Shown piece by piece: positions 9,793-31,991 of a DNA stretch of 48,479 nt (the first letter of the stretch is position 1; each line of letters opens with the position of its first letter). The notes under the pieces were generated by a model. The model made no database searches, was not told where the DNA came from, and saw only the letters and a list, made by a program, of their open reading frames with translations. Source of the DNA: Candidatus Saccharimonadia bacterium (GTDB lineage: Bacteria > Patescibacteriota > Saccharimonadia > Saccharimonadales > Saccharimonadaceae); contig JALQVV010000079.1 of NCBI GenBank assembly GCA_023260255.1, positions 1-48,479 on the forward strand, read 5' to 3'. The position numbers and the translations under genes were made by a program.

Positions 9793-12700
9793 CTATCTGT
9801 TGCTAAACGTGAATCCAAGATCGCTGACGTATGCATTAGCGTTTGTCATAGAGCGAAGGGTGATCTTGAAGACGATACTGTCGTTAGCAGCAAAGTTACA
9901 GGTAGAGGGGTCAGAGCCTCCTGTCGCAACAGCTTGATCCCATACATTCGCGCTGCTAGCGACAGTAACTGAGTTGCCGCAAGGCATCATCCCTGAACTG
10001 TTACTCTTATATATTTGATAGGTTATTCCTGCATTTGTTGTATTGTCGACGCGGCCCTTGATAGAGGTCGATCCAGAGTTGAATGCCTTAAAGGTTGAAG
10101 GGAGCTGATAGGTAACATAGATGCTGTAATCTTGTGATGATGATTGAGGAGAGGTCCATTTGTAGAAGTTTCTTGTTTCGTTGGTGTTACAAATTTGAGG
10201 ACCATTCGTCGGATCATTAATATTGAGGAAGTCAGAGCAGATATCTGATGTCATGGTACCAACACCCGTACCATGCATCACTGCATTTGTGTATTCTGGC
10301 GAAATCGTAATGATATTGTCAGGTGCTGATCCACAAGCTCCCCAGCCATCGGCCTCGTAGCATTGTAATTTTCCGATCGTTGTATCGTAATACATTGAAC
10401 CAAGTAATGAATCATTGTTCTCGGCAATTGGTGCAGAAGCACCTCGGTCGACCGTAAGCAATGTCGGAGGGCCACCACTCGCGCCACCACCAACCTGGAC
10501 ATTGGCCGCTGTATTCGTTGCGAGTGACATTGTGAAGTTGTCGACAGAGAATGTCCTTGCAGTTGATGCAGTCTCGGCGAAGTAAACATATGGATTGGTT
10601 GCTGCCGTTGAAGTGGTCTTTATGTAGCAGGTGATTTGTGTCCAGCTGCTTGTGCTAATGGTTTGGGTATTGTAGTCGACACAGTCAACGTAATTACCTG
10701 CATTAGTATCTGTTGCACCTGTTGGTGAGTAGCGGATCTTGAAATCTGTAAAGGACTCTACGGACTTCGCGTAGACAGATATGCGGTAAAGTGTGTCAGT
10801 AAGAGGGTTAATAGACAGCTTGTTACGGATTCCGGCATTTGCCGCACCTACGCTAATTGCTGCCTGGGCGCTATCGCTTGCATCATACCCATCGCTCGTA
10901 TTACGTGTAGGAGTGACCGTACCGAGGCCAGCAGATACCCAGTTGGAAGCGAAATTCGTGTTATCCACTACGGAGCCGTCGGTTGCATAGTTGAGGTTGC
11001 CAGCGACAGTAACGCTGAGGTTATCGACGTAGAAGGTACGCGCAACACCTGTTGTCTGACGGATTAAGATGGCATTGTTTGATGAAATGCTCGACGACGG
11101 TGCCTTGAACGAACAGTCAATCCTTGTCCAGACACTTGTCTTGATTGCCTTACCAGATGTACAGAGGACAGAGGTTGAAGTGCCATCAGCAGAGTAGTAC
11201 ACATCCATATCGGTGAATGTTCCGCTTGAAAGACGTGCTGTAAACGACACGTTATAGGTCATATTTGCGTTTAGGGCTGCTGAAAGTTGGTTCTTGATAC
11301 CATGTCCTGCAGTTGCGCTTGTCGTGACCGCAACTGACCCTTGGCCTGTATTGATAAAGTCGCCAGCCGTGTTGTAACGAGTGACGGTGCCGCCAGCAGG
11401 AGCTGCGGACCAGGTGTTTGATGGGAAGGTTGTGGCGGTGCTGCCAGCCGTTTCGGCGCCGGCGTTGCTTGCATATTGTGGGACATTGCTATTCACCGCG
11501 AAGAGGGTGCCGGCTGATGCATTCTGGACTTCAAGCAGTGTTCCATTGACCGGGTTCGTACTACTGTCACGGATCGTGAGGCCATTGGTATTAGAGCCAC
11601 TACTGACAATCAACTCAGCACCGCCGGCGCTTTGCAGTGTATTGTTGTATGCCGATTGCAGGGTGGTTGAGTTTGATGCACCGGCCACGGTCCAGTCGCT
11701 CCCATTCCAAATGAGTGTTGCACTGGTGTTCTGGCGCATAGATGTCAGATTGCCAGTACCACCGCCATTGAGTGATAGTGTGAAGTCGCTCGAGCCATTT
11801 GCGGCAGTTATATATACGATGCGTCCGGCGGTCGTATTGGTTGGATCGGGGATGTTGGCCGTTTGACCAGCTGCGCTGAAGCCGACGATGATTGCAGAAG
11901 TGCTGTTGATGCTCGCTGCAGTTACGGTACAGGTACTGGCGACCAGTGCGCCGCCGGTGTAACAGTTGGCATCATTTGAAGTAGTCGAGAATGTCGGTGT
12001 GCTGATGACGACCAAGCCGTTTGTACCAGTGCCGACACCGCTACCGCCGCTCAGTGTCAAATTGCCGCCATTTGCGTTACCGTTTGTCGCTGATCCTGCC
12101 TGCAGGGTAACATCTCCACCTTGAGCGTTAGCGGCTGTGCTGCTGGTGCCCTGAATCGTAAAGCCATTTGCGGTCGAGGCCTGTCCGCTTGCGTCAGCAT
12201 TTCCAACGTACAGTGTGTTACCGCTGCCAGAGAATCGGGCACGTTGAGTTCCGTTTGTTGCGATAGTCGTGTCGTCTTTGGACTGGATAGCTGTCGTGCC
12301 ACCTGCTATGGTTGTCGTGCCGGTACTAGTGTTGTTGCCGATTGTAATTGTCTGAGAGCCGCCAGATGCAACTCCGACACTGATCGCACTTGCGTTGGTG
12401 GTACCGATTTGGATAGTGCCATTTGACCCACTACCGCTGCCAGTGCCTGCATCAATGGCAACACCGCCGCCGTTACCACTGCTGCCCGTGCCGTTGCCAC
12501 CTTGAAGAACAAAGCTACCACCGTTGCCGCCACTGGCGCTCCCTTCGCCGCCCTGGAGCCAAAAATTGTGTGAGTCGCCGCTGCTGGCAGGTGCCATTGT
12601 GAGGACATGGTCGTCATCGTTGCCGAAATACAGATCACCATAGTTGTCGATCGTGAATACATCCGTTGAAGCTCGTTGCAGTTGAAGCAGGTTGCCACTG

Positions 12701-13311
12701 CCGGTCTTGTTGATGAAGATACTGCTCGTATTAGTGCTGGTATCAGTCTGGACACCCTGGGCAAGCTGCACAAAGTTGCTCGCCGTTTTGCCACCAAGCT
12801 GGGCAGAGTTAATTGCAAATGGTACAGAGGTAATCCGTTTCATCGGCAGCATTTCGCCGTCAGCTGTACAGCTGGCACCACCAAACGATGTACATGCCTG
12901 GTTTGACCCAGCAACGTTCATAGACAGCCATAGGCTGTCTTGATTCCAATCAACTTGTGTACCGAATGCATTGAGCGATCCGAGGTTTACCGAGAAGTAG
13001 CCATTTTTCACCTCCACGCCGTTTGTACCGCCGTTGTTAATATATGATTCGGTCCATTTCAGTGTACCGCCACCACTTTCCGATCCGTCCCGATAAATCT
13101 TGAACTGGATATTGTAGTTGCCATCAGGAACCACACCACCGCCGGCTGTCAGTAGTCGACCTTGAAAACTTAGCGTCTGGTTGATGCCTGGTGCCGCGTG
13201 CGAAACAACACCAAATAATAGCGTTGTGATTAACGCAACAAACATCGCAACAAGCCCTGCTATTCGCAGTGCATGACGCTGTTTAAAAACAGTGGGGAGG
13301 TGACACCACAT
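9793..13311 (-). CDS. Large (1172 aa) secreted or surface protein with Gly/Ser/Thr/Asn-rich beta-rich regions and two tandem CBM_4_9-like jelly-roll domains
   Basis: N-terminal signal anchor is IAGLVAMFVALITTLLFGVVSHA. Two paralogous ~160-aa segments end in ARTFYVDNLSVTV and ARTFSVDNFTMSL (about 10539-11514). It is the first gene of the minus-strand operon, 72 nt upstream of the giant gene. Confidence 0.8.
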   Translation of the reverse strand: MWCHLPTVFKQRHALRIAGLVAMFVALITTLLFGVVSHAAPGINQTLSFQGRLLTAGGGVVPDGNYNIQFKIYRDGSESGGGTLKWTESYINNGGTNGVEVKNGYFSVNLGSLNAFGTQVDWNQDSLWLSMNVAGSNQACTSFGGASCTADGEMLPMKRITSVPFAINSAQLGGKTASNFVQLAQGVQTDTSTNTSSIFINKTGSGNLLQLQRASTDVFTIDNYGDLYFGNDDDHVLTMAPASSGDSHNFWLQGGEGSASGGNGGSFVLQGGNGTGSSGNGGGVAIDAGTGSGSGSNGTIQIGTTNASAISVGVASGGSQTITIGNNTSTGTTTIAGGTTAIQSKDDTTIATNGTQRARFSGSGNTLYVGNADASGQASTANGFTIQGTSSTAANAQGGDVTLQAGSATNGNANGGNLTLSGGSGVGTGTNGLVVISTPTFSTTSNDANCYTGGALVASTCTVTAASINSTSAIIVGFSAAGQTANIPDPTNTTAGRIVYITAANGSSDFTLSLNGGGTGNLTSMRQNTSATLIWNGSDWTVAGASNSTTLQSAYNNTLQSAGGAELIVSSGSNTNGLTIRDSSTNPVNGTLLEVQNASAGTLFAVNSNVPQYASNAGAETAGSTATTFPSNTWSAAPAGGTVTRYNTAGDFINTGQGSVAVTTSATAGHGIKNQLSAALNANMTYNVSFTARLSSGTFTDMDVYYSADGTSTSVLCTSGKAIKTSVWTRIDCSFKAPSSSISSNNAILIRQTTGVARTFYVDNLSVTVAGNLNYATDGSVVDNTNFASNWVSAGLGTVTPTRNTSDGYDASDSAQAAISVGAANAGIRNKLSINPLTDTLYRISVYAKSVESFTDFKIRYSPTGATDTNAGNYVDCVDYNTQTISTSSWTQITCYIKTTSTAATNPYVYFAETASTARTFSVDNFTMSLATNTAANVQVGGGASGGPPTLLTVDRGASAPIAENNDSLLGSMYYDTTIGKLQCYEADGWGACGSAPDNIITISPEYTNAVMHGTGVGTMTSDICSDFLNINDPTNGPQICNTNETRNFYKWTSPQSSSQDYSIYVTYQLPSTFKAFNSGSTSIKGRVDNTTNAGITYQIYKSNSSGMMPCGNSVTVASSANVWDQAVATGGSDPSTCNFAANDSIVFKITLRSMTNANAYVSDLGFTFSNR

Positions 13312-19719: not shown

Positions 19720-20033
19720 TGGCCGACGAAACCCCAACGCCAGCAGTTACCGAATCCGAACAGCCGGCCAATACGCATGATGGCAAACCAATCATGGAGG
19801 TAAAAGTCTATGCGCCGTTCCAGGTGTATTTCGAAGGGAGCGCCTACAGTGTGAGCGCGGTCAATGACACGGGGCCATTTGATATTTTGCCTCGTCACCA
19901 TAATTTCCTTTGTATGCTAGTACCCTGTAACTTGGTTGTGAAACCTGTTGAAGGTGATTCAAAAATCATCAAGGTTCATCGCGCACTTATGCACGTCAAG
20001 GCTGACCGTGTCGTGGTGTTTATGGATGTCTAA
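19719..20033 (+). CDS. atpC: F1 ATP synthase epsilon subunit, short form (beta-sandwich only)
   Basis: 104 aa, with its start overlapping the beta stop (TAATG). It is epsilon-like (VYAPFQVYFEGSAYSVSAVNDTGPFDILPRHHNF...) but has no C-terminal helical hairpin and carries a ~25-aa N-terminal extension. Confidence 0.75.
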
Positions 20034-21052
20034 CCCGCAACAAAATAATCAAACGCAAAGGTTTTGTTCGCTGCCGGGGCACTGTTGGTACACAAACTAA
20101 ACCCTTTCGTGTCGCGATCAACGTAGTAATCCATTGTTGCTGCGCCAGATCCTACAGGACTGATAATGACCCGTGGTTGGCTGGCGAATGCCCGTTGAAA
20201 ATTCACCTTCACGATGCAGCCCGAACCATTGGGACCATTGCCAGAATTCATGTTAATTGTTCCCGAAGTATCCGAACCGTTAATTGATACGGATCCACCG
20301 CTACCCAGAATGCCGCTCCCAATAATAGAACGGCTCGGTGATGGGCCAGTGAAGCTCAGGTGGTTAGGAAGTTGCAGTACACCATCACCACTCAAAATGA
20401 GTCGGGTGACGGTGATCTGTGACGCCGTAACTGTGCCGCTAAATGACGAGGCGCCCGATACGTTTAAATCACGGAGCGTTGTGGTGCCCTGGATGGCGGT
20501 ATTTTGTGCTACTTGCAGACTATTGATTTGTGTCGCGCCAAGATTGGTCTGGCCTGATATGGTGATATTTGGTGCCTGAATACTGCCGCCCACTTGCAAA
20601 TTGCCTGCGACGTTCAAGTTACCGCGAGCTAATGTTTGCCCCGAAATAACCGCATTGCCCTGAATGGTGAGTGTTTGCGATGTGTTGCCAACTGATGTGT
20701 CGGTATTGGCTAATTGCTTGAGAGCCTCGGGTGTCAGGTTTTGCGATGCAATGTTTGGTGTTTCGGGTGGTTTTTGGCTATTGAGATAATTCACAATGGT
20801 GACAGCTGCCGCCACAATCACCATTAAAATAAATAGCAGCAAATACACGTTCACCCGACGAAAGAATCGCCGTACAGGCGAGATCTTTTTTTCTGCCGGA
20901 TTATCCTTTGATGCATCGGTCGTCGTTGCCTTTTCGGCAGCTTCTTGCTCCAAATCATCGGGCGTGCGACTTAATGCATCAGCTGGGGCTTGCTGCTCAT
21001 CTTTTGAATTTTCGCCATCTTCCGGCGGCGTATTAGATTTGTCGGGCTCCAT
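20030..21052 (-). CDS. Single-pass membrane protein with an extracellular beta-helix-like repeat region and an H-type-lectin-like C-terminal domain
   Basis: 340 aa with an acidic N-terminus and TM VYLLLFILMVIVAAAVTIV. Degenerate repeats follow (NLNVAGNLQVGGSIQAPNITISGQTNLGATQINSLQVAQNTAIQGTTTL). The C-terminus (IVKVNFQRAFASQPRVIISP...DTKGFSLCT...FAFDYFV) fits the H_lectin pattern. Confidence 0.6.
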   Translation of the reverse strand: MEPDKSNTPPEDGENSKDEQQAPADALSRTPDDLEQEAAEKATTTDASKDNPAEKKISPVRRFFRRVNVYLLLFILMVIVAAAVTIVNYLNSQKPPETPNIASQNLTPEALKQLANTDTSVGNTSQTLTIQGNAVISGQTLARGNLNVAGNLQVGGSIQAPNITISGQTNLGATQINSLQVAQNTAIQGTTTLRDLNVSGASSFSGTVTASQITVTRLILSGDGVLQLPNHLSFTGPSPSRSIIGSGILGSGGSVSINGSDTSGTINMNSGNGPNGSGCIVKVNFQRAFASQPRVIISPVGSGAATMDYYVDRDTKGFSLCTNSAPAANKTFAFDYFVAG

Positions 21053-21134: not shown

Positions 21135-21875
21135 ATGCGAAAACAGAGAGTGTGGTATACAGGGAGATTTCTACTGCTCGTGGCAGTGATTGCTGGTATC
21201 AGCGCGCCAGCAGCCTTTGCGCAGTCGTCCAAATCAACCAATTACCAGGCCACCGAGACACAGTTTGGTGCTGGGTCTACCAAGGAACAGTGCTCCAGTC
21301 AGTACTGTACGCGCACCTCAATTGGCGATATGGCCGTTGGCGATAGCGATAGCAGCCAGCACACGGCTACGTTTGGCCCTATTACACCGGACGAGCCCAT
21401 GCTCGAGGTAATTGTTGACCCAGGGGTATCTAACCTTGGTGTCCTGACAGCCGAGCACACCGCGACCAAAACGACCACTGTGCAAGTTCGTAACTATCTG
21501 AGCAACGGCTATGTTCTCCAAATCACTGGCAATCCACCCAAATACGCCAATCACACATTAGCCGCACCATCATCACCAACTGCTTCAACACCGGGTACCG
21601 AACAGTTTGCCATCAATGCAGCCGACAATTCCACGCCTGATATTGGTGCGGCGGCCATCCAGGTACCATCAGGTCAGTTCAGCTTTGGTGTTGTCGATGC
21701 TGGATACAGCACGCCCAATCTATTCAAATATGTCAGTGGTGATGTCGTTGCCCGCAGCCCCAGTGCATCCGGTCGTACTGACTACACCATTAGCATGATC
21801 GTCAACATTGCCAACAATACGCCGGCCGGACATTATCAGGGTGATTTTGCAGCAGTTGTCATACCCGTTTATTAA
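21135..21875 (+). CDS. Secreted 246-aa paralogue of the surface-cluster family (C-terminal PAG-Y strand); minor subunit candidate
   Basis: Signal peptide is LLLVAVIAGISAPAAFA. It shares GTEQFAINAA and the C-terminal NNTPAGHYQGDFAAVVIPVY with the 613-, 365- and 411-aa proteins. Confidence 0.75.
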   Translation: MRKQRVWYTGRFLLLVAVIAGISAPAAFAQSSKSTNYQATETQFGAGSTKEQCSSQYCTRTSIGDMAVGDSDSSQHTATFGPITPDEPMLEVIVDPGVSNLGVLTAEHTATKTTTVQVRNYLSNGYVLQITGNPPKYANHTLAAPSSPTASTPGTEQFAINAADNSTPDIGAAAIQVPSGQFSFGVVDAGYSTPNLFKYVSGDVVARSPSASGRTDYTISMIVNIANNTPAGHYQGDFAAVVIPVY

Positions 21876-21889
21876 ATTTTTGTAAATTG

Positions 21890-21999
21890 TTGTGGAAAAC
21901 TCTATTGCACATCACATATTACTTATGATAAAATTCGCCCGTACCCCTTGTATAAGGAACTAAAACAAACATTAAAGAATTAGGAGATATACAAACACC
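21890..21999 (+). promoter_or_regulatory. Promoter and leader of the 613-aa subunit gene; paralogous to 27119-27233
   Basis: Contains the shared box TTGTGGAAAACTC (21890-21902), TTGCAC (21905-21910), extended -10 TGaTAAAAT (21926-21934), the shared leader AAAACAAACATTAAA and an AGGAG RBS. Confidence 0.5.
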
Positions 22000-23841
22000 A
22001 TGTATACACTCAAATCAATCGTGCGACGCGGCTCGATGCTTGGTGCATCCGTTGCTTTATTGGCAGCAACGGTCATCCCAGCGGCGCCCGCATTTGCCGA
22101 TGCGTTGAACCCGCTGACAGAGCGTAGTTTGACGCTTTCAAGCTCATCACCGGGCTGGGCATTTACGGACGGTTCGGGCAATACCACCTATGCACCACCT
22201 AATAGCGGTGCGAACGGTCAAAAAACAGGTAACTACTTTGATTTCAAAGTTAGTAGCGCAGCTACTGTTAAAACGTTCTCGTTTCAGTACTGTACTACTT
22301 CGGCTGGTAGCTGTGAAATCCCAGGTAACGACGTAGCGCGAGGTACTGACACGTCGACGACGAGTGACTTGAATGTCAATTATCCGTCAGCCTCGGAAAT
22401 TGGAAGTAGTGACTTTGCCACGGTTGTTGATAGTGCAACCGGCACAGTGAAGGCTGTTCCTGGTTACGTAAACAATAACCCTAAATATCAGGCAGCTGGC
22501 GGTACCGGTGATCCAGCCGAGGCGGCCAAGAACGTTGCAGGTAACTTCATTGTTATGCGTAACGTTGCTGGTACTTGGACGCAATCTACTGGCTGGACGG
22601 CACAAGCACATAACGTTGATGATGGTACGGGTGTAACTAATAACTACATTACCCTTACAAATGCCAGCGGCGTTGCACTGTCAGTTGGCCAGCAAGTGAA
22701 GGTGTTGTTCTTTGCAACTGGCACTAATTACATCACTAACCCGGGTGCAGGTGCGTTCTTCGTAAAAATTAATACGTATAATGTACCGTTTGAAGATTCA
22801 GTAACACCTACTGCTCCAGCAGTGAATAGAAGTGGTCTTCAGCCTGCTACGGACACCAATGTCATCGACGGTGGTGTAACGGTAGCGAACGTGATGAACC
22901 AATCAATTCAGATTACGACAAAGGTATTGGAAACGATGGAATTCTCTGTCGGTACCGTTGATCCAAATACGCTCACAAGTGCTGAACTCGCTGCGTCTGA
23001 TTACGCTAGCGCTACCCATATCCCTTGCGGTCGAGTTCTGACTCGTATGACTCCAAGCGATCCGCAGAACGTTTTGCAACTTGGTAACCAAAGTGCTGAA
23101 AGTTCGCTAGAAACAGCCAAGGCATACGCCACACACTCATACTGGCGACTTAGCTCCAACTCATCTGGTGGTGCGACGGTATACTACTCCGGCCATACGC
23201 TTGCCAACACCTCAGGTGATGAAATCCGACCTATAAACGGTGGTAATAATACCGCAGCAACCTCAGCGCCAGGCTCAGAACAGTTTGGCCTCGCGCTTGC
23301 CACGACTGCTCTATCTGGCTCACCAACCTTTAACACAGGTACTCATGGTGTTAACTACGTACAAGACCGTGATACTGGTAAAGTTTGGGAAAACGGTGCT
23401 GACAACGGCAAGATCGGTATTAGCAGCGATACACTTGAAGATCTCGGTGCAGTGTATACCGGTACGGCACCTGCATTGTGGAGTCCCAACGATTCTAACT
23501 GGGATTACACGACAACTCCTCTGAATCAGAGCTACCATACCTCACGTCTTGATCCACTTGCGCCACTGGCTAATTACGGTAATGGCTCAGGAAGAATCAA
23601 CGGTGACGACAGCTTAGACAAGAATGGTGTCGCATTCGGACAGCCTGGTTATGATACAACGAATGCGCAGTTTGCCTTCGATAAAATGTCAGACACAGTG
23701 CCACGTGCTGTTGCATCTGAATCTGATCAGGTTGTCGACTGTGTAACTGCCAAGGTGCGTTACGTTGCAAACATCGCTGCAACCACACCTGCTGGTATCT
23801 ACACGACCAAAGTTAACTGGATTGCAGCCCCTCAGTACTAG
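22000..23841 (+). CDS. Secreted 613-aa major subunit candidate of the WxL/Csc-like (or pilin-like) surface cluster
   Basis: Signal peptide is LLAATVIPAAPAFA. Family motifs are ERSLTLSSS, FSFQYCTTSAGSC, VLETMEFSVG and GSEQFGLALA. The C-terminus is ATTPAGIYTTKVNWIAAPQY. It has its own promoter and is followed by a terminator. Confidence 0.8.
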   Translation: MYTLKSIVRRGSMLGASVALLAATVIPAAPAFADALNPLTERSLTLSSSSPGWAFTDGSGNTTYAPPNSGANGQKTGNYFDFKVSSAATVKTFSFQYCTTSAGSCEIPGNDVARGTDTSTTSDLNVNYPSASEIGSSDFATVVDSATGTVKAVPGYVNNNPKYQAAGGTGDPAEAAKNVAGNFIVMRNVAGTWTQSTGWTAQAHNVDDGTGVTNNYITLTNASGVALSVGQQVKVLFFATGTNYITNPGAGAFFVKINTYNVPFEDSVTPTAPAVNRSGLQPATDTNVIDGGVTVANVMNQSIQITTKVLETMEFSVGTVDPNTLTSAELAASDYASATHIPCGRVLTRMTPSDPQNVLQLGNQSAESSLETAKAYATHSYWRLSSNSSGGATVYYSGHTLANTSGDEIRPINGGNNTAATSAPGSEQFGLALATTALSGSPTFNTGTHGVNYVQDRDTGKVWENGADNGKIGISSDTLEDLGAVYTGTAPALWSPNDSNWDYTTTPLNQSYHTSRLDPLAPLANYGNGSGRINGDDSLDKNGVAFGQPGYDTTNAQFAFDKMSDTVPRAVASESDQVVDCVTAKVRYVANIAATTPAGIYTTKVNWIAAPQY

Positions 23842-23876
23842 ATCTAGTAATCTTGTTGACTACAGTATAGTAAATC

Positions 23877-23904
23877 AAAACCGGTCCCAAGTGGGCCGGT
23901 TTTG
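23877..23904 (+). terminator. Intrinsic terminator after the 613-aa gene
   Basis: AAAACCGGTCCC-AAGT-GGGCCGGTTTT: a 7-bp GC stem with one bulge, flanked by an A-run and a T-run. Confidence 0.7.
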
Positions 23905-23922
23905 TATAGTACAATAACAGGT

Positions 23923-24999
23923 ATGCAACATAAGTTGTTTCGCTTTCATGCGCTTGCGCATCCGTTGCACCACATGGGGGTTGTGGATTTCCTATGTTTG
24001 TTTGTGGCATTGTTTATGTTTGTTATACCGGTATCGGCGTCGACGCGCTTCCAGGAGCGCGGACTATATATGAATAGTACGACCCCAGGGGCAACAACTT
24101 CCTATACAGTATCATTTCGTTACATGACTCCTGTCACAACTGGTTCAGTAGATATGCTGTTTTGTATCAATCCAATTCCGTATGAGCCATGCGTGACACC
24201 ACCTGGTCTGGATGTATCGAACGCTGTATTGAGCGACCAGTCGGGCGAGACAGGGTATACGGCCGATATTCGGTCAGCGAATCATATCGTACTGACGCGT
24301 ACACCATCAGTAATATCGAGCGGTGATATGTCATCATACAAATTTGATAATATTGTTAACCCTACAGATACGGCCACATCGTTTTCGATACGTCTCAGTA
24401 GTTATGCGTCCACCAATGCCACGGGTCCACTTATTGACTTTGGGTCGGTGAAGGGACAAGTGACAAATGGCATCACAATCGAAACGCAGGTGCCGCCTAT
24501 GCTGATATTCTGCGTGGCGGAACAAGTATCTGAGGATTGTAGTAATACGAATGATAATTATTACACCGACATGGGCCAGTTGGATGCTAATTCGACACTG
24601 ACAGCGCAGTCACAAATGGCTGTCGGCACCAATGCGACTGGCGGCTTTGCAATCATGGCCAACGGCGCACCCCCAGCAGCAGGTACGAATGTGATTGATG
24701 CGCCATCCGTACCAACACTAAGCGAAAAGGGCAGTAATCAATTCGGAATTAACTTAGTCGCTAATACGTCGCCAGCTGTTGGTAATGACCCCGAGGGAGC
24801 ATTTGCGAATGCTATACCATCCCCTGATTATAGTGTGCCTGATCAGTACAAGTTTGTATCAGGCGATGTTGTTGCGTACTCACCAAATGTCAGCTTGGTG
24901 CGAAAATTCACTGTTAGTTATATTCTCAATTCGAGTCAAGATCTGCGCCCCGGTGTGTATAGCACAACGATCACCTACATAGCCAGCGGCCGCTTTTAA
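23923..24999 (+). CDS. Secreted ~358-aa paralogue of the surface-cluster family
   Basis: The track start (TTG at 23902) lies inside the terminator, so I prefer the ATG at 23923 (ATG at 23974 is also possible). Signal-like segment is FLCLFVALFMFVIPVSAS. Family motifs are ERGLYMNSTTPG, MLFCINPIPYEPC, PPMLIFCVAE and GSNQFGINLV. The C-terminus is LRPGVYSTTITYIASGRF. Confidence 0.7.
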   Translation: MQHKLFRFHALAHPLHHMGVVDFLCLFVALFMFVIPVSASTRFQERGLYMNSTTPGATTSYTVSFRYMTPVTTGSVDMLFCINPIPYEPCVTPPGLDVSNAVLSDQSGETGYTADIRSANHIVLTRTPSVISSGDMSSYKFDNIVNPTDTATSFSIRLSSYASTNATGPLIDFGSVKGQVTNGITIETQVPPMLIFCVAEQVSEDCSNTNDNYYTDMGQLDANSTLTAQSQMAVGTNATGGFAIMANGAPPAAGTNVIDAPSVPTLSEKGSNQFGINLVANTSPAVGNDPEGAFANAIPSPDYSVPDQYKFVSGDVVAYSPNVSLVRKFTVSYILNSSQDLRPGVYSTTITYIASGRF

Positions 25000-25046
25000 T
25001 GATAAAATACGGCTTATACTTATACAAATAAAACGTGAGGGATAAA

Positions 25047-26114
25047 ATGAAACGCTTTACGAGCATTGTCAGTGCCGCGTTTGCAGTCGTGATTGCTGCT
25101 GCTTATACTATCGCAATACCAGTTCAACCAGTCTCAGCCCAATCTTCGGCGGCGCTGAGTATCGCACCAAAGAAAAACTATGTTATTGAACCGGGCAAAT
25201 CGGTTAAAGACAAGCTGACCATTCGCAACCTTGATAATTCCTCACCGCTACAATTGACTCTTCGTGTTGTTGACTTCACCTTTACCGATGATGGCGGCAC
25301 GCCAAAACTGTTTTTGGCCGAGGATGCGCCCCAAACCACGTGGTCACTTAAACCATTTATGACAGTTCCAAAGAGTGTCACCATTCCAAAAAACGGTAGC
25401 AAGACACTTGATATGAGTGTAGCAATCCCAGCAGGTCATGGTGCGGGTAGCTATTATAGCGCTATCATCTATTCAACGGGCGCTCCTGACGGCGGTAATG
25501 TCGGCCTAGCAGCATCTGGTGTAACATTGGTATTTACTAATATTCCAGGCAAGGTAAACGAAGATCTCAAACTAGAGAAGTTTGGTGCATATAGGGAGGC
25601 CACGGCTAATAACCCAGCGAGTTACCTGTTTCTCACTACCGACGAGCCACAAAAGATTGCTTATACCCTGAAAAACAGTGGCAACGTCACCGAGGCGCCT
25701 GCCGGTAGTATTACACTGAATGGATGGTTTGGTAGTCCGATTACTATCAATAATGTGAATCCTAATGGATCACTGGCGCTGATTGGTCAGTCCCGTACAT
25801 ATACTGCATGTATTAAGCTGAAGGATGCAGAAGTTGACTTTAATGGGCAAAAGACGAAGTCGACAGCCTGTGATTCACCTGGTCTATTCCCGGGTTACTA
25901 TTCTGCCAAACTCGATTTATTCTATGGCCAAAACGGTAATCGCACCCAAGAAATCATTGGCAGTGCAGGATTCTGGTACCTACCTTGGTGGTTTATTATC
26001 CTGGTGATTGTCGTCCTTGCGATTCTAGCCTTTGTTATCTGGCGTGTCTATGGCTGGGTGCGAGTCAAACTGTACGGCCCTCAGTACAAAAAACGCTCGT
26101 CACGCCGCCGATAA
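25047..26114 (+). CDS. DUF916/DUF3324-like (WxL-interacting-protein-like) protein with a C-terminal TM anchor and basic tail
   Basis: The ATG at 25047 is preceded by GAGGGA. It has a signal peptide and the strings LSIAPKKNYVIEPGKSVKDKLTIRNLDNSSPLQLT, PKNGSKTLDMSVAIPAGHGAGSYYSAIIY and PGYYSAKLDLFYG. The C-terminal TM is WWFIILVIVVLAILAFVIW followed by KKRSSRRR. Confidence 0.7.
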   Translation: MKRFTSIVSAAFAVVIAAAYTIAIPVQPVSAQSSAALSIAPKKNYVIEPGKSVKDKLTIRNLDNSSPLQLTLRVVDFTFTDDGGTPKLFLAEDAPQTTWSLKPFMTVPKSVTIPKNGSKTLDMSVAIPAGHGAGSYYSAIIYSTGAPDGGNVGLAASGVTLVFTNIPGKVNEDLKLEKFGAYREATANNPASYLFLTTDEPQKIAYTLKNSGNVTEAPAGSITLNGWFGSPITINNVNPNGSLALIGQSRTYTACIKLKDAEVDFNGQKTKSTACDSPGLFPGYYSAKLDLFYGQNGNRTQEIIGSAGFWYLPWWFIILVIVVLAILAFVIWRVYGWVRVKLYGPQYKKRSSRRR

Positions 26115-26166
26115 AGCTTAGGTATCTTTCGTAACAGGCGGGGGCACGGTACAATAAGGCACAAGC

Positions 26167-27102
26167 ATGATGGGTAAGATTGCGACAAGCAGCGTGCGGT
26201 GGGCATTCCTGACGATAATCAGTGTGTGCTTGCTGGTAGTGTTTGGATATGTACAGCGTGCGTCGGCAATCAATCCACTACCAACGCCCGATCCCAAGCC
26301 GGGATCATACGGTATCGAAGCCACCAAGCCAAAACCACCGCCAACTCAAGGCGCAACCATCACCATCCCGGGCAATGGTGCTTCGTTCAGTTCGTCACCA
26401 ATTGAAGTAAGGGGTATTTGCCCCAATGGCCTGTTGGTGCAGGTGTACAACAACGGAGTGATGGTGGGGTCGGTTATGTGTGCGAATGGCAGCTTTGGTC
26501 TCCAGGTCAGCCTGTTTGCAGGTACCAACGAACTATCAGCTATTGTTTATGACGAGCTTGATCAGGCCGGGCCGACATCCAATACGATAACAGTGACCTA
26601 CAGCGACACGCGCTTTACGGCGTTTGGCGCGCTCGTTACACTTACCAGCTCGTATGGACGTCGCTCGGCGCCAGTAGGCACCCAGCTTAGCTGGCCGTTG
26701 CAGTTATCCGGAGGTACGGGGCCGTATGCATTTAGCATTGATTGGGGCGATGGAACCAAGCCTGAACTCAAAAGTCAGTCTCTGGCAGGCCTCGTGACTA
26801 TCACGCATGTGTATAAAAAAGCGGGTATATATCAGGTGAATATCAAGGTTACGGATGTCAATGGCGTTAGTGCATTCCTGCAAGTCATTGCAGTCAGTAG
26901 TGGTAAGGTTGACGGTTCGACGTCAGGATCCGCAGACGACAAGGCAACAAATACTACCACCGGTCCACCACAGATATTATGGATACCTACGGCCGTATCG
27001 CTAGTATTACTCTTCCCGGCGTATTGGTTAGGTCGCCGTAGTCAGGTCCTTTCACTCCGCAACAAAATGCTCAAAGAGCGTGACAGCTACAAAGAGAAAT
27101 AG
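26167..27102 (+). CDS. Membrane-anchored protein with Ig-like and PKD domains
   Basis: It has a signal peptide and a PKD signature (GGTGPYAFSIDWGDGTKPE...ITHVYKKAGIYQVNIKVTDVNGVSA). The C-terminal TM is IPTAVSLVLLFPAYWL, followed by a cytoplasmic tail. Confidence 0.8.
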   Translation: MMGKIATSSVRWAFLTIISVCLLVVFGYVQRASAINPLPTPDPKPGSYGIEATKPKPPPTQGATITIPGNGASFSSSPIEVRGICPNGLLVQVYNNGVMVGSVMCANGSFGLQVSLFAGTNELSAIVYDELDQAGPTSNTITVTYSDTRFTAFGALVTLTSSYGRRSAPVGTQLSWPLQLSGGTGPYAFSIDWGDGTKPELKSQSLAGLVTITHVYKKAGIYQVNIKVTDVNGVSAFLQVIAVSSGKVDGSTSGSADDKATNTTTGPPQILWIPTAVSLVLLFPAYWLGRRSQVLSLRNKMLKERDSYKEK

Positions 27103-27118
27103 TGATCTCTCTGTAAGA

Positions 27119-27233
27119 TTGTGGAAAACTCGTGTAAAAAGTACTTGACAAGCATAAGCATAGCTGTGATACACTAGACCCGTTCCTAGACAAAACAAAA
27201 AACATTAAAAATGTGAGGAGAGAAGGAGGAATC
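27119..27233 (+). promoter_or_regulatory. Promoter and leader of the 411-aa subunit gene; paralogous to 21890-21999
   Basis: Contains the shared box TTGTGGAAAACTC (27119-27131), TTGACA (27145-27150), TGaTACACT (27167-27175), the shared leader AAAACAAAAAACATTAAAA and an AAGGAGG RBS. Confidence 0.5.
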
Positions 27234-28448
27234 ATGAATTCCCTGAATCTTAGATTACCCAGTCGACGGACTGGTTATATAGCAGCTGCATTGATGTTGG
27301 TGATGACATTTATCTCATCCGCATTTGCATCAGCTGCACAAGTAACAGAAAGAAGCATTGAACTATCAAGTTCTGCCAAGACCGCAACAAACGTTACTTA
27401 TAATTTGACGTTTACACCTGTGAGCGCGGCTGGTGCGACGGCACTGCAATTTTGTAGTAACTCACCGCTCATTGGTGCATCATGTACGGCCCCTACTGGT
27501 ATTAATGTGGCTAGCGCTGCAGAATCTAGTGCAACGAGTGTCTCAAAGCCAAGTGTGGCTGCAGGCATGGGCCCTGTAGTGGTTATAGAAAAGTCGATTA
27601 CTGCTTCGGCAACAACACTGACAGTTACGGGCATTACTAACCCATCATCTGCTGGTGCTCTCTATGTTCGTGTCATTACTTACGACACCAAAGCTCACGC
27701 AGAGGCTGACTATACCGCAACGGGTGATAGTGGTGATAATGATGGTATTGGCGGCACTGGTGCGGCCGCTGCAGATGCTGTAGATAATGGATCTGTGGCG
27801 CTATCAATCACCGATACTATCGGTGTGTCCGCTGCGGTTCTTGAAACGTTGCTCTTCTGTGTATCTGGTCAGACGAATGAATCTACAGCTACTAACCCAA
27901 TTGCTGCTGGTTGTGCAAGTGGGCTGACTCCACCAACGCTTACCCTTGGTGAGACAACAGGTAATGTAAAAGCCCTTTCAGCATCTGCAATTAGCACGGG
28001 CGATATCTATACGCAGATTTCGACAAATGCCGCAAATGGGGCAGTAGTTAACCTGAAAAGCAATGTAGCTTGTGGAGGCCTGAAACGAGTCGAGGCAACA
28101 GGTTGTGATATTGCACCTGCGGGGACTACTGGCTTTACGACCGCGCCTAATGCACTATTTGGTGTCAAGGTTAATGCAGATAGCGGGACAGACACTACTC
28201 AGAGCGCAACTGGCACATTTCAGGTCGCTTCTGGTGCGAACTATGACGGAACAACTTACAAATTGAAGTATCTTGCAAATAACTCTGCAGGCGTCACTAG
28301 CGTCTATGGTGATCCAATTCTTGATACAAACGGTACGCAGCCAAGTAATCGAAATATGAAACTTACTTTTGGCGCAAGTATTAATAACAATACGCCGGCA
28401 GGTCTCTACAAAGCAGACCTTAGCCTCATCGCAACTGGTAAATTCTAA
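27234..28448 (+). CDS. Secreted ~404-aa major subunit candidate of the second module of the surface cluster
   Basis: The ATG at 27234 follows AAGGAGG. Signal peptide is AAALMLVMTFISSAFASA. Family motifs are ERSIELSSS, LQFCSNSPLIGASC and VLETLLFCVSG. The C-terminus is NNTPAGLYKADLSLIATGKF. A terminator follows. Confidence 0.8.
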   Translation: MNSLNLRLPSRRTGYIAAALMLVMTFISSAFASAAQVTERSIELSSSAKTATNVTYNLTFTPVSAAGATALQFCSNSPLIGASCTAPTGINVASAAESSATSVSKPSVAAGMGPVVVIEKSITASATTLTVTGITNPSSAGALYVRVITYDTKAHAEADYTATGDSGDNDGIGGTGAAAADAVDNGSVALSITDTIGVSAAVLETLLFCVSGQTNESTATNPIAAGCASGLTPPTLTLGETTGNVKALSASAISTGDIYTQISTNAANGAVVNLKSNVACGGLKRVEATGCDIAPAGTTGFTTAPNALFGVKVNADSGTDTTQSATGTFQVASGANYDGTTYKLKYLANNSAGVTSVYGDPILDTNGTQPSNRNMKLTFGASINNNTPAGLYKADLSLIATGKF

Positions 28449-28466
28449 AATATATCATTGCTTACC

Positions 28467-28498
28467 AACAACACCCTCACTACGGGGGTGTTGTTTTG
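28467..28498 (+). terminator. Intrinsic terminator after the 411-aa gene
   Basis: AACAACACCC (28467-28476) pairs with GGGTGTTGTT (28486-28495). A T-run follows. Confidence 0.65.
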
Positions 28499-28567
28499 TG
28501 CAAAAGCGCTTGCAAACGTAAGCATATCTGTTATGATGGTACTAATCACGTAAACGGGAAATATAGT

Positions 28568-29590
28568 GTGTTGGTAAAACAACGTGCAAAAACAAACATT
28601 TTTTGGGTAATGGTTGCTGCTGTGGCCGCAATTACTTTCAGCTTGCTGATTGGCTCACAATCGTTTGCTCAGTCAAACAGTACAACGGCTAACGTATTAA
28701 AAGTTTCGCCAGTTCGTAGCGACATCGAAGTCAAACCAGGTGAGAGTAAAAAAGTACAGACGACCATCACCAACCTGACAAAAGGCTCGATCACTGTTAA
28801 GCCAATTATGAATGACTTTATTGCAGGTGATGAGCGGGGTACCCCGGCACTGATTCTTGATGAAGATAAATTTGCGCCAACCCATAGCCTGAAACGGTTT
28901 ATGAAACCGCTCCCAAACATTACCATCGAGGCTGGCAAGGCTCGCACAGTTGATGTGGTCATCACTGTGCCCAAAGATGCTCAAGCTGGTGGCTACTTTG
29001 GTGCGGTTCGTTTTGCACCAACATCTCCCGATGGTGGCGGACAGGTCAACCTGAGCGGTAGTGTGGCATCGCTGATCCTATTGAGCGTCCCTGGGCCAAC
29101 CGTTGAAAAGCTAGAACTGACAGAATTCAATATCTTACAAGGTGGTAAATCAGGCTCATTCTTCCAAAGTTCAAACGACCTACAGGCGACGGCTCGATTT
29201 ACAAGCAGCAGTAATATACAGGTCGGTCCATTCGGTAAGCTATCTGTTAAACAGGGCGATAAGGTTATCTATGACACTGACTTCAACAACAAAACCCAGC
29301 GCGACATGATCTTACCTGACAGTGCTCGCCGTTGGGACTTCCCGCTGAAAAACATCGGTAGCTTCGGCTACTACACGGTCAGTGCAACGTTCACCTACGG
29401 TCAAAAGAACCAAACCATTGAGGTAGAAAAATCATTCTGGGTCGTGCCATGGATTGTCATTGCCGTTGCGGTTGGCGGTGTACTGCTACTTATCTTGCTA
29501 ATTGTTGGTATCTGGTTGTTCCTCCGCAGCTACAAACGCCGCATCCTTCGCAGCCAGGGTGGCTTTGGCCGCAACCGCTATCGCCGCTAA
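28568..29590 (+). CDS. Second DUF916/DUF3324-like (WxL-interacting-protein-like) protein with a C-terminal TM anchor and basic tail
   Basis: Paralogue of 25047-26114, with LKVSPVRSDIEVKPGESKKVQTTITNLTKGSITV, VITVPKDAQAGGYFGAVRF and YYTVSATFTYG. The TM is IVIAVAVGGVLLLILLIVGIWLFL, followed by RSYKRRILR. The start is uncertain: the track start at 28496 overlaps the terminator, and I prefer the GTG at 28568. Confidence 0.7.
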   Translation: MLVKQRAKTNIFWVMVAAVAAITFSLLIGSQSFAQSNSTTANVLKVSPVRSDIEVKPGESKKVQTTITNLTKGSITVKPIMNDFIAGDERGTPALILDEDKFAPTHSLKRFMKPLPNITIEAGKARTVDVVITVPKDAQAGGYFGAVRFAPTSPDGGGQVNLSGSVASLILLSVPGPTVEKLELTEFNILQGGKSGSFFQSSNDLQATARFTSSSNIQVGPFGKLSVKQGDKVIYDTDFNNKTQRDMILPDSARRWDFPLKNIGSFGYYTVSATFTYGQKNQTIEVEKSFWVVPWIVIAVAVGGVLLLILLIVGIWLFLRSYKRRILRSQGGFGRNRYRR

Positions 29591-29634
29591 CGGTTGACGA
29601 AACAGAGGCGAATAAGTATAATTCGCTAAGGTAT

Positions 29635-29709
29635 TCCGGCGTAGCTCAGCGGTAGAGCATTCGGCTGTTAACCGAAGGGCCACTGGTTCGAATCCAGTCG
29701 CCGGAGCCA
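29635..29709 (+). tRNA. tRNA-Asn (anticodon GTT), CCA encoded
   Basis: A full cloverleaf can be drawn by hand: acceptor TCCGGCG/CGCCGGA, D arm GCTC/GAGC, anticodon arm TTCGG-CTGTTAA-CCGAA, 5-nt variable loop, T arm ACTGG-TTCGAAT-CCAGT, discriminator G, CCA. Confidence 0.93.
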
Positions 29710-30245: not shown

Positions 30246-30752
30246 TTAGAAGATATCGATTAATGCTTGAAGTTCAGGAAGTCTTGCCCTTGCTTCGTCG
30301 AGCATACTTTTCGTGAATAATCTTTTATATTCACGTTCGTCTGTTCTTTTGGGCTCTGAAATATACGTTTTCTCAAAATATCCTTTCCACCGAGAGTCAC
30401 TTAGCAACTTACTCGGCTCGAGTATGTTCACTAAAAGTTTCTCAAGCATAGGTATGCTCTTTAAAATTATAAGATCGTTTTTTTGTCCGAATTCTTCGAT
30501 ATTTGTGTAGATGCTATTTTCCCAGTCTTGATCCCGGTCTCCATCGATTTTCAAGTATTTGTCTTCGTAAAAGCTACCCACTCTAACTGCAGTCTCGGCA
30601 AGATTGATCTGATCGCCCCCAGTTCCAGGTTTAATGTCAACATTGTATGTTTCACTGGCGTAAATAGACTTTATACACTCCAAGAACGCCTTATCTGCTG
30701 CTCCTTCACAATAGATGAGGCGGGTTCTTTTTGTACGATGGATCCGTGGCAT
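30246..30752 (-). CDS. RloB-like (TOPRIM-like) small protein; partner of the upstream AAA ATPase
   Basis: 168 aa. The N-terminus KRTRLIYCEGAADKAFLECI fits the RloB / DUF4435-type xxCEGxxDxxF start. Its ATG abuts the ATPase stop (TAG-ATG). Confidence 0.55.
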   Translation of the reverse strand: MPRIHRTKRTRLIYCEGAADKAFLECIKSIYASETYNVDIKPGTGGDQINLAETAVRVGSFYEDKYLKIDGDRDQDWENSIYTNIEEFGQKNDLIILKSIPMLEKLLVNILEPSKLLSDSRWKGYFEKTYISEPKRTDEREYKRLFTKSMLDEARARLPELQALIDIF

Positions 30753-31991
30753 CTAGGCTCCAATTTTTGGGCGAGCCCCATACGCACCGGCAATGTATCT
30801 AGTGTAGTAGTTGTCTGTTGATTTCACGCCCTCTACTTCATCAAGTCGCCACGATTCAGTTTTTCCATGCTCATTCTTTTCAACTAGAATTATCTGTCGA
30901 CTGTCAAATGAATTGAGAAGCCGGTGGTTGTGTGTGCTAAACAGCAACTGTGCCTTGTTGGGATTGGTTACTGGACTCATGAATAGCTCGACAAATGCCT
31001 CGACAATATCAGGGTGTAAGAAGGCGTCGATTTCATCAATCACGGCTATGCCGCCGTTTTTTACTGATAATGCTTGCATAATGCAGTCCAAAATTACAAT
31101 CATCCTCTTTGTGCCAGAAGACTCCTGTTCTATGAGGGTATTGAAATTGTCCTTTAAGAAACTGTGCTTTATCCCATACGCTATGCGTTTGTTAGCACCA
31201 GGAACTGGAAGTTCGGTTTCATGTCTGAAAAAATCGTTGAACCCAATATCATATTTAGTCAGGGTTTCTTTAACTTTTTTACTAACTGGGTTATTGTTAT
31301 TTTCTGATAATCTGTGAAGACTTCTTTGCACTAAACGATCGAATGCATGTGACGAATCTTCCTTGTTACCTTGAACCCATAAATTATATTCAAAAACATC
31401 ATCACACCAATAATCCGATATAATTTTCGCTAAGTCACTTGGATTTTCTCTTTGCATGATTGAAGACACCATGCTTGCATTTCTGCGTAGCTCTGAAGTA
31501 CTTGATATACCGAGGACTTTATCAGTTAATTCGTAAGACTTTGTAGCACGATTCCATGTTCGCGATACCAGTGTCTTTAAAGTAATACGTTCTTTTGTCT
31601 TGCTATATTCTTTGAGCTCTTCCTTGATAATTTTCTTATCATCAAGGATAAATGAGTATTCAAAAACTCGATCATTGACAGTAAACTTAGAAGCTATTTC
31701 AGATGGCTTTCCGTTACACGCTGCATGTGGTTCGAAAAGAATATCTTCCTTTGGATCGTTATGGTATGAATAGCCAATCAGATATTTTAGGAATGCAATA
31801 CCTTGTAGGACTTTGGTCTTTCCCGATGCATTCGGGCCAATTACGGATTCAATTAAAGAAAGGCGACCAGCAATGTTGCCGTGATCAACAAAAAGATTAG
31901 TCCTAGGGGCATTCCCATCAACAGCAAAGTCGACTGTTACGCCATCTTCACCAATTGAATAGAAGTTCTTAACCGTGTAATTAAGTATCAT
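30753..31991 (-). CDS. AAA_21/AAA_15-type (ABC/OLD-like) ATPase, RloA/AbiLi-like
   Basis: 412 aa. The N-terminus is MILNYTVKNFYSIG. Walker A is GPNASGKTK, Walker B is IAVIDEIDAFLHPD, and the H-loop region is LLFSTHNHRLL. The gene is AT-rich relative to its flanks. Confidence 0.8.
   Translation of the reverse strand: MILNYTVKNFYSIGEDGVTVDFAVDGNAPRTNLFVDHGNIAGRLSLIESVIGPNASGKTKVLQGIAFLKYLIGYSYHNDPKEDILFEPHAACNGKPSEIASKFTVNDRVFEYSFILDDKKIIKEELKEYSKTKERITLKTLVSRTWNRATKSYELTDKVLGISSTSELRRNASMVSSIMQRENPSDLAKIISDYWCDDVFEYNLWVQGNKEDSSHAFDRLVQRSLHRLSENNNNPVSKKVKETLTKYDIGFNDFFRHETELPVPGANKRIAYGIKHSFLKDNFNTLIEQESSGTKRMIVILDCIMQALSVKNGGIAVIDEIDAFLHPDIVEAFVELFMSPVTNPNKAQLLFSTHNHRLLNSFDSRQIILVEKNEHGKTESWRLDEVEGVKSTDNYYTRYIAGAYGARPKIGA

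Follow-up and report, generated by a model that had tools for sequence, protein, structure and literature searches.

What do the seven genes at positions 21135-29590 of a 48,479-nucleotide stretch of DNA from a Candidatus Saccharimonadia bacterium (contig JALQVV010000079.1 of assembly GCA_023260255.1; the whole stretch is called the window here) encode? The seven open reading frames (ORFs) are co-oriented on the plus strand, and a sequence-only reading had taken them for a duplicated WxL/Csc-like or chaperone-pilin-like surface assembly cluster of a type not known to be described, and had proposed profile searches and a survey of synteny. The evidence presented here indicates that the region is very probably an orthologue of the pam operon of bacteria of the candidate phyla radiation (CPR; class Saccharimonadia), which encodes a strand-exchange pilus with membrane-anchored chaperones. 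The operon occurs widely among Saccharibacteria, and its pili are thought to serve the ultrasmall, parasitic CPR bacteria as threads for reaching their host cells and holding on to them.

As the Pam system was already described in 2026 and curated NCBIfam models exist for it, the locus itself is not novel, and the view that its type was undescribed is outdated; the window provides one more Pam orthologue and nothing new in kind. The remaining value of the locus lies in an unreported kinship of its chaperones PamC and PamD with the WxL-interacting proteins (WxLIP) of Firmicutes, and in a conserved promoter box. The observations of the sequence-only reading were confirmed and its interpretation was partly supported; overall, it was largely right.

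Identity of the locus

Filaments shed by Ca. Mycosynbacter amalyticus were found by cryo-electron microscopy (cryo-EM) to consist of two pilins, PamA and PamB (Troman et al., bioRxiv 10.64898/2026.03.03.709456). Cryo-EM and mass spectrometry in the same preprint showed that these filaments are put together through donor-strand exchange, the donor strand being an internal linker and not an N-terminal extension. According to Troman et al., the M. amalyticus operon also encodes a third pilin (PamE), a single-domain tip pilin without the linker strand (PamT), two PapD/FimC-like chaperones with a C-terminal transmembrane (TM) helix (PamC and PamD), and a membrane-anchored RbmA-like protein (PamR). 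Their accession numbers imply the order PamT-PamA-PamE-PamD-PamR-PamB-PamC, which is the gene order found in the window.

The family search was performed with NCBIfam release 20, in which the cut-offs are 240 bits for PamT, 300 bits for PamR, and 55 bits for Pam_pilin_C. PamT matched the equivalog model NF058579 (CPR_pilus_PamT) with 312.3 bits over residues 11-246, and PamR matched the equivalog model NF058578 (CPR_pilus_PamR, "pilus system RbmA-like protein") with 388.8 bits. The pilin domain model NF058581 (Pam_pilin_C) was found in PamT (155 bits), PamE (152.5 bits), and PamA (56.1 bits). In addition, PamA corresponds to the PamA of the preprint in operon position and cysteine count, and PamB to its PamB in operon position, size, and cysteine pairs; two and three pairs were reported for M. 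amalyticus PamA and PamB, respectively (Troman et al.), and the window proteins have 4 and 6 cysteines. Homologues of PamT numbered 759, and every named one came from Saccharibacteria.

The coordinates and sizes of the seven genes agree with those of the sequence-only reading, and predicted export features (an N-terminal basic stretch, a hydrophobic segment, and an AxA-like site) were present in all seven products. A C-terminal TM helix with a basic tail is found in PamD, PamC, and PamR. The last of these, encoded by pamR (26167-27102, plus strand; 311 amino acids (aa); TM helix at 270-288), is an RbmA-like/PKD-domain protein that passed the Pfam thresholds for PKD_4 (29.3 bits) and PKD (26.7 bits), and it is the PKD protein named earlier. 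Gene starts were refined from ribosome-binding sites, two terminator hairpins, and the gene calls of a near-identical strain whose PamT is 99% identical; these calls agree in size, including a 358-aa pamE and a 404-aa pamB.

Synteny was surveyed in the best 80 loci (L012-L091) of a PamT alignment scan of GTDB species representatives, in which 315 genomes were matched. These loci came almost entirely from Saccharibacteria/Saccharimonadales, including the cultured TM7i, in which the canonical operon is present (L038), with nearly all record titles naming Saccharibacteria, and the closest PamT was 66% identical. Among the loci with at least 8.5 kb downstream, the seven-gene order of the window was kept in 43 of 51. 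In 60 of 64 related loci, atpC and a divergent 340-aa gene lay directly upstream of pamT. Median identity was lowest for PamA and PamB (45-46%) and highest for PamR, PamE, and PamD (62-70%). A one-module operon comprising PamT, one pilin, PamE, one chaperone, and PamR was present in five of the 51 loci (L087-L091), all among the more distant ones.

This strict order, kept though the orthologues are only about 45-70% identical, argues against the explanation that the genes encode unrelated secreted immunoglobulin (Ig)-like adhesins or S-layer-type proteins, adjacent but not co-assembling. Ig-like and PKD domains are indeed common in surface proteins, and large Kelch and CBM proteins are encoded nearby; with matches to family-specific NCBIfam models and filaments of the orthologues seen by cryo-EM, we consider this explanation extremely unlikely.

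Several points weigh against the identification as a pam operon. PamB scored 35.1 bits against NF058581, which is under the cut-off. The fold matches of the PamT model were weak (E at best 0.017; predicted local distance difference test (pLDDT) 67), and neither PamC nor PamD matched the Pfam PapD families (PF00345/PF02753) at E <= 1. Sequence searches of a PDB copy without the Pam cryo-EM models, made with PamA, PamB, and PamC singly and with a PamC-family profile, returned nothing relevant. The chaperone action, the subunit order, and the PamR anchor were derived from AlphaFold in the preprint (Troman et al.), which has not undergone peer review. Further, the present analysis established the orthology, synteny, and topology of the locus, the fold and family of its chaperones, and the layout of its promoters and terminators, but a filament built by donor-strand exchange was seen for the M. 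amalyticus orthologues and would apply by analogy to the organism of the window.

The pilin repertoire varies even between very close strains, as judged from the one-module loci and from extra genes at two others. In the near-identical strain (JGI metagenome 3300050046, 131,845-bp contig), pamA and pamE are separated by an extra gene of 461 aa, and locus L082 has an additional PamB-like gene between pamT and pamA. An atp-pam block of the Saccharibacteria type was also observed on contigs in metagenome-assembled genomes named Sulfuriferula, Rhodoglobus, Verrucomicrobiia, and Dongiaceae (L022, L030, L035, and L048). Because these contigs are short (5-15 kb), they probably represent binning contamination rather than an occurrence outside the CPR.

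Pilin subunits and putative membrane-anchored chaperones

The four subunits for which the sequence-only reading had claimed paralogy correspond to the pilins. The gene pamT (21135-21875, plus strand; 246 aa) encodes the single-domain tip pilin, which has the C-terminal acceptor domain only and no linker (donor) strand. The large major pilin is encoded by pamA (22000-23841, plus strand; 613 aa; ribosome-binding site AGGAG), with a mature mass of about 60 kDa and its four cysteines forming two pairs. The small major pilin is encoded by pamB (27234-28448, plus strand; 404 aa from an ATG behind AGGAGG), with a mature mass of about 37 kDa and its six cysteines forming three pairs. The minor two-domain pilin is encoded by pamE (23923-24999, plus strand; 358 aa from the ATG at 23923); its longest ORF begins at a TTG at 23902, within the terminator of pamA.

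Paralogy was confirmed by the pilin domain in PamT, PamA, and PamE, with PamB under the cut-off as described above, and by a BLASTP match between PamT and PamE (35% identity over the C-terminal domain, E = 2e-20). The shared motifs quoted for the subunits are present in the translations, although ERS(L/I)xLSSS is exact in PamA and PamB only and degenerate in PamE (ERGLYMNSTT), and PamB has a degenerate form of G(S/T)(E/N)QF; ERS(L/I)xLSSS is absent from PamT, a protein that lacks the N-terminal domain altogether. The quoted C-terminal strands were exact, all four pilins ending in G-x-Y-x(11)-aromatic with glycine as the 15th residue from the end and an aromatic last residue (4/4). This glycine at -15 with a terminal aromatic has a counterpart in chaperone-usher pilins, where a similar motif is conserved at the C-terminus.

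In the AlphaFold2 model of PamT, the best PDB matches were the PapGII pilin domain (E 0.017), CfaB, and the Csu pilin, with weak E values of 0.02-0.07; by this model, the fold of the Pam subunits may be called weakly pilin-like. The Pfam families SCPU (PF05229), Fimbrial, and WxL were not matched by the four window subunits at E <= 1, so the SCPU relationship suggested earlier was not upheld. When 113 C-terminal domains of pilins (109 orthologous and the 4 of the window) were scanned with Pfam at E <= 10, WxL, SCPU, and Fimbrial were again not matched, and the scan gave one stray Adhesin_Dr match at 0.045.

The two anchor proteins are encoded by pamD (25047-26114, plus strand; 355 aa) and pamC (28568-29590, plus strand; 340 aa from the GTG at 28568). 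Both are chaperone-like and membrane-anchored: in PamD, a signal peptide is followed by two Ig-like domains and, at the C-terminus, by a TM helix (307-344 in the numbering of the 359-aa ORF) and a basic tail, and PamC is a DUF916/WxLIP homologue. PamC and PamD share 27% identity (E = 7e-25), and their families matched each other with 99.9% probability in hhalign; they are clear paralogues. This is in line with the earlier description of two TM-anchored proteins with two Ig-like domains and a basic tail, and it makes the proposed division into two modules, each closed by an anchor protein, a reasonable one.

The homology of PamC and PamD to the DUF916/WxLIP proteins of Firmicutes is well supported. 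Against Pfam PF06030 (DUF916, now WxLIP_PGBD; threshold 27.3 bits), PamC scored 31.5 bits, above the threshold, and PamD 20.0 bits, below it. PF06030 was found in most of the 120 best PamC homologues, one of which is named "DUF916 domain-containing protein [Ca. Saccharimonadales]" at NCBI. A permissive tblastn search of plasmids with PamC gave six weak matches, four of them on Enterococcus genes annotated "DUF916 and DUF3324" and a fifth in an unannotated Enterococcus record. For profile comparison by hhalign, 12 WxLIP were taken from 11 Firmicutes WxL loci on plasmids (L001-L011). The PamC family matched these with 98.5% probability (E = 3e-15, 267 columns), PamC without its signal peptide and TM helix with 96.7% (E = 4e-10), the N-domain of PamC alone with 97.4% (E = 1e-11), and the PamD family with 91.7% (E = 8e-7); a control with reversed sequences reached 0.4%.

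The comparison of folds pointed to the same relatives. With the AlphaFold2 model of PamC (pLDDT 82.6), the top Foldseek matches in the PDB were 9i1y_A (E = 3.8e-11) and 9i25_C (E = 7.8e-11), both WxLIP of E. faecium, the latter bound to a long WxL protein. These structures were reached through profile-profile and fold comparison only and not through the PDB sequence search. The second domain (DUF3324, PF11797, WxLIP_HBD) had no Pfam match, and hhalign with the C-domain alone gave a non-significant 1-11%; the two-domain model of PamC was aligned by Foldseek with 9i1y_A over 274 columns. Thus, of the DUF916/DUF3324-like anchors proposed earlier, the DUF916 part stood, and DUF3324 was not detectable by sequence. 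The Pam preprint nowhere mentions WxL or DUF916 (Troman et al.).

Next in the fold list of PamC came the chaperone-usher chaperones CfaA, DraB, CsuC, FimC, SafB, and Caf1M (E 1e-9 to 1e-6), as well as EcpB. The model thus independently confirms the PapD/FimC-like character of PamC, with WxLIP closer than any chaperone-usher chaperone, and it places the likeness of PamC and PamD to PapD-family chaperones at the level of the fold only. These matches to CfaA, DraB, CsuC, FimC, SafB, and Caf1M, together with the PapG, CfaB, and Csu pilin domains as best matches of PamT, might be read as signs that a chaperone-usher pilus of the classical or archaic kind (Pap/Fim/Csu/SCPU type) was taken over from a diderm. 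We regard such an origin as very unlikely, as WxLIP are nearer in fold, PamC and PamD are TM-anchored and not soluble, and Pfam PapD_N/C, Fimbrial, and SCPU were not matched. Moreover, no Usher or PapD match was found in Pfam among the pam-region and large neighbour proteins, a scan that covered some but not all ORFs of the window. As donor strand, the Pam pilins use an internal linker and not an N-terminal extension (Troman et al.), and the named homologues came from CPR organisms only.

LPXTG-like motifs were absent from all seven proteins, and the six-frame translation of the window contained neither a sorting signal nor TLxTC. The sortase-free and usher-free surface fibre proposed earlier is thus supported by the scans made, in which LPXTG, TLxTC, and an usher were not found, and the "chaperone-pilin-like" alternative named the mechanism that the cryo-EM preprint reports (Troman et al.).

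The WxLIP kinship of the anchors raises the question of whether the subunits also belong to the WxL world. WxL proteins have been described as peptidoglycan-bound adhesins and not as filaments, and WxLIP as proteins of the make-up DUF916-DUF3324-TM (Hassan et al. 2023, PMC10599100). On this model, which was the leading choice of the sequence-only reading, the window would encode a WxL/Csc-type complex, with the subunits held non-covalently at the wall by a DUF916-DUF3324 WxL-interacting protein and acting as adhesins, not as a filament. The true DUF916/WxLIP homology of PamC and PamD speaks for it, as does a parallel cluster logic with a small single-domain subunit, larger subunits in which the common domain is C-terminal, and an anchor protein with a TM helix and two Ig domains.

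The subunits themselves gave a different result. The WxL family PF13731 was matched by none of the four window subunits at E <= 1 and by none of the 113 C-terminal domains at E <= 10, the dual W-x-L motif was present in none of the pilins (the lone match being WRL at 382 in PamA), and an LPXTG partner was not found in the scans above. Three hhalign profiles, built from only the PamT family, from all four paralogues, and from 240 C-terminal domains of the 80 loci, matched WxL with a probability of 2.8-7.2%; at this level, homology of the subunits to the WxL domain was rejected as unsupported. The WxL chain of 9i25 was outside the 50 best fold matches of the PamT model; a small WxL protein had no sequence match in the PDB that would have pointed to this chain. 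Since Pam orthologues are also filamentous in cryo-EM, we judge a WxL/Csc-type complex to be very improbable. The WxL/Csc-like label thus held for the anchors (PF06030, hhalign, and Foldseek) and failed for the subunits; the profile searches proposed earlier found DUF916 for PamC and neither WxL nor SCPU for the subunits.

The weak local hhalign matches nevertheless fall on the two positions that define WxL domains, NGYVLQI against GWxLxV and the C-terminal G-x-Y...W/Y-x-L/I strand, and these best local matches could be counted in favour of a WxL/Csc complex. The order of motifs is collinear between Pam and WxL proteins: (F/L)G..., then G(W/Y)xLxV, then a C-terminal GxY...(W/Y/L)x(L/I)..P strand. 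These collinear matches keep a relationship between the whole systems open, though unproven, and Pam and WxL subunits could share an ancestry too distant for sequence methods to reveal. A published description of WxL proteins (PMC9772566) has their N-terminal strand as a mobile cover over the WxL platform, a picture that resembles a donor strand complementing its own subunit.

On this basis, we tentatively suggest that Pam pili and WxL/Csc clusters may be diverged forms of one ancient monoderm assembly system in which a membrane-tethered chaperone of the DUF916 type inserts a strand into exported subunits and so completes their incomplete beta-sandwich, a possibility that we hold to be rather less probable than not. 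If so, WxL proteins might also undergo donor-strand exchange and form short fibres, and the Pam pilus would have originated inside Terrabacteria and not by transfer from diderm chaperone-usher systems.

As a separate observation, the small WxL proteins of the plasmid loci (L001-L011) end in ...G-x-Y-x-S/T-x-L-T-W-x-L-x-D/N-A/T-P. The Pam pilin ends, ...P-A-G-x-Y-x(4)-V/L-x-W/Y/L-I-A-x-P/G, resemble them (e.g., PamA ...PAGIYTTKVNWIAAPQY).

Promoters, proposed assembly, and neighbouring genes

The exact 13-mer TTGTGGAAAACTC occurs in only two copies in the window, each just upstream of a -35 element and about 110 nt before pamA or pamB. The pamA promoter (21890-21934, plus strand) comprises the box at 21890-21902, the -35 element TTGCAC at 21905-21910, and the extended -10 element TGaTAAAAT at 21926-21934. 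The pamB promoter (27119-27175, plus strand) comprises the box at 27119-27131, TTGACA at 27145-27150, and TGaTACACT at 27167-27175. The spacing from the box to the -35 element differs between the two by about one helical turn, and both leaders also have AACATTAAA in common.

Intrinsic terminator-like hairpins, read by eye, follow both genes on the plus strand: AAACCGGTCCC-AAGT-GGGCCGGTTT with a TGT tail after pamA (23878-23905), and AACAACACCC-loop-GGGTGTTGTT with a TTGT tail after pamB (28467-28499). Both hairpins are G+C-rich and T-tailed, and both were missed by a scan for a consensus terminator pattern. The earlier claim that the two large subunit genes have their own promoters and terminators was thereby borne out, and strong promoters and terminators of their own fit the role of PamA and PamB as bulk subunits.

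The box was then sought in the 80 related loci (1.25 Mb), allowing up to two mismatches at 30-250 nt upstream of a gene. It preceded pamA in 37 of 70 loci, pamB in 18 of 62, and the other five pam genes in none; the pamA and pamB positions account for 55 of the 77 matches in the 1.25 Mb. The consensus in these relatives is TTGTGGA(A/T)AAC(T/C)(C/T), and the commonest variant, TTGTGGATAACTC, contains TGTGGATAA, a perfect DnaA box, being the reverse complement of TTATCCACA. Judged from its letters, the 13-mer may be described as a DnaA-box-like promoter element, and, being common to the two major pilin genes, it offers a handle on the regulation of pilus production.

For the orthologous pilus of the window, the following assembly is proposed. 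All seven products would be exported by Sec. PamT, PamA, PamE, and PamB are predicted to have in common an incomplete Ig-like domain at the C-terminus, whose groove is open, and PamA, PamB, and PamE to have in addition an N-terminal beta-sandwich and a linker strand of alternating hydrophobic residues (SIQITTKV, TIGVSAAV, and GITIETQV). PamC and PamD, which are two-Ig and PapD-like and would be tethered to the cytoplasmic membrane by their C-terminal helix, may cap the grooves of new pilins until the linker strand of a neighbouring subunit enters by donor-strand exchange. Because the cell has no outer membrane, an usher would be unnecessary.

Nucleation would take place on PamT at the fibre tip; as PamT has no linker strand, it could act as a strand acceptor only, which would place it in this position. 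Elongation would proceed by donor-strand exchange with PamB and PamA, the products of putatively highly expressed genes, with PamE incorporated next, and the membrane-anchored PamR would stop growth and hold the fibre.

Upstream of the operon, the counterpart of a gene called "tail fibre-like" in the preprint (20030-21052, minus strand; 340 aa) is divergent from pamT and overlaps the end of atpC. The N-terminus of its product is acidic and disordered; the protein also has a single TM helix and a repeat region of beta-helical, bactofilin-like character, which scored 26 bits against Pfam Bactofilin, just below the threshold. The corresponding gene is central in the neighbourhood network of the preprint (Troman et al.), although it is uncertain whether the protein belongs to the pilus system.

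Two giant predicted surface proteins are encoded on the minus strand upstream of the ATP synthase operon, namely a Kelch-repeat protein (3964-9720; 1918 aa) and a protein with a CBM_4_9 carbohydrate-binding domain (9793-13311; 1172 aa); they are possible host-attachment factors, and the 1172-aa gene was also found in the near-identical strain.

Directly 3' of the pam operon lies a tRNA-Asn gene (29635-29709, plus strand) with the near-consensus promoter TTGACG-17-TATAAT at 29594-29622. It is followed by a low-GC stretch at 30-36 kb (about 40% versus about 49%), which opens with a gene for an AbiLi-like AAA ATPase (30246-31991, minus strand; PADLOC PDLC02335, 217 bits). This gene overlaps one for a 168-aa protein without a family match, and the two are probably a defence pair of the AbiL type, carried by an island that has integrated at the tRNA-Asn.

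Comparison with known systems

The closest known system is the Pam operon of M. amalyticus. Both operons have the seven genes in the same order, adjoin the ATP synthase genes and the "tail fibre-like" gene, encode TM-anchored chaperones and PamA and PamB with two and three cysteine pairs, and come from CPR hosts of the Saccharimonadia. They differ in that the window probably belongs to another species, with a best PamT identity of 66% among the GTDB species representatives; in that its PamA is somewhat larger (mature about 60 kDa versus 55.3 kDa reported); and in that its PamB is under the cut-off of the pilin domain.

With RbmA, the biofilm matrix protein of Vibrio cholerae with tandem fibronectin type III domains, PamR shares the "RbmA-like" name given by NCBIfam, and the fold comparison with the two-Ig PamC model also brought up RbmA (4kkp_B). 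Unlike RbmA, PamR is no secreted matrix protein: Pfam assigns it a PKD-type domain, it ends in a TM helix, and its N-terminal strand is proposed to plug the last pilin.

Chaperone-usher pili (Pap, Fim, CFA/I, and Csu) have in common with the Pam pilus a PapD-like two-domain chaperone, a pilin predicted to be incomplete and Ig-like, and donor-strand exchange, as well as a conserved C-terminal strand in which a glycine precedes the end by about 14 residues and the last or second-last residue is aromatic. In contrast, the Pam system has no usher among the proteins scanned and no outer membrane, its chaperone is membrane-tethered, its two-domain pilins donate an internal linker strand, and there is no similarity at the level of Pfam sequence families; its fibre is extended and not coiled (Troman et al.). 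Sortase-assembled pili differ from the Pam pilus in their LPXTG sorting signal, pilin motif, and sortase, none of which was found here.

Compared with the WxL/Csc clusters of Lactobacillales and Bacillales, the Pam system belongs to another host phylum, its subunits have no WxL domain with two W-x-L motifs, it has no small LPXTG protein, and the DUF3324 half of its anchors is unrecognisable by sequence. The make-up of the clusters is nevertheless the same, with a small single-domain subunit and large subunits whose common domain is C-terminal, and in both systems a strand of the anchor protein is predicted to complete the incomplete beta-sandwich of a partner subunit. PamC and PamD are built like Firmicutes WxLIP, with a signal peptide, a pair of Ig-like domains, and a TM helix and basic tail at the C-terminus, and are of about the same length (340-360 aa). 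Their membership in the DUF916/WxLIP family gives a pilus regarded as "CPR-exclusive" a relative in Firmicutes, and the Pam chaperones provide the poorly understood WxL clusters with a mechanistic model of a chaperone acting with strand complementation.

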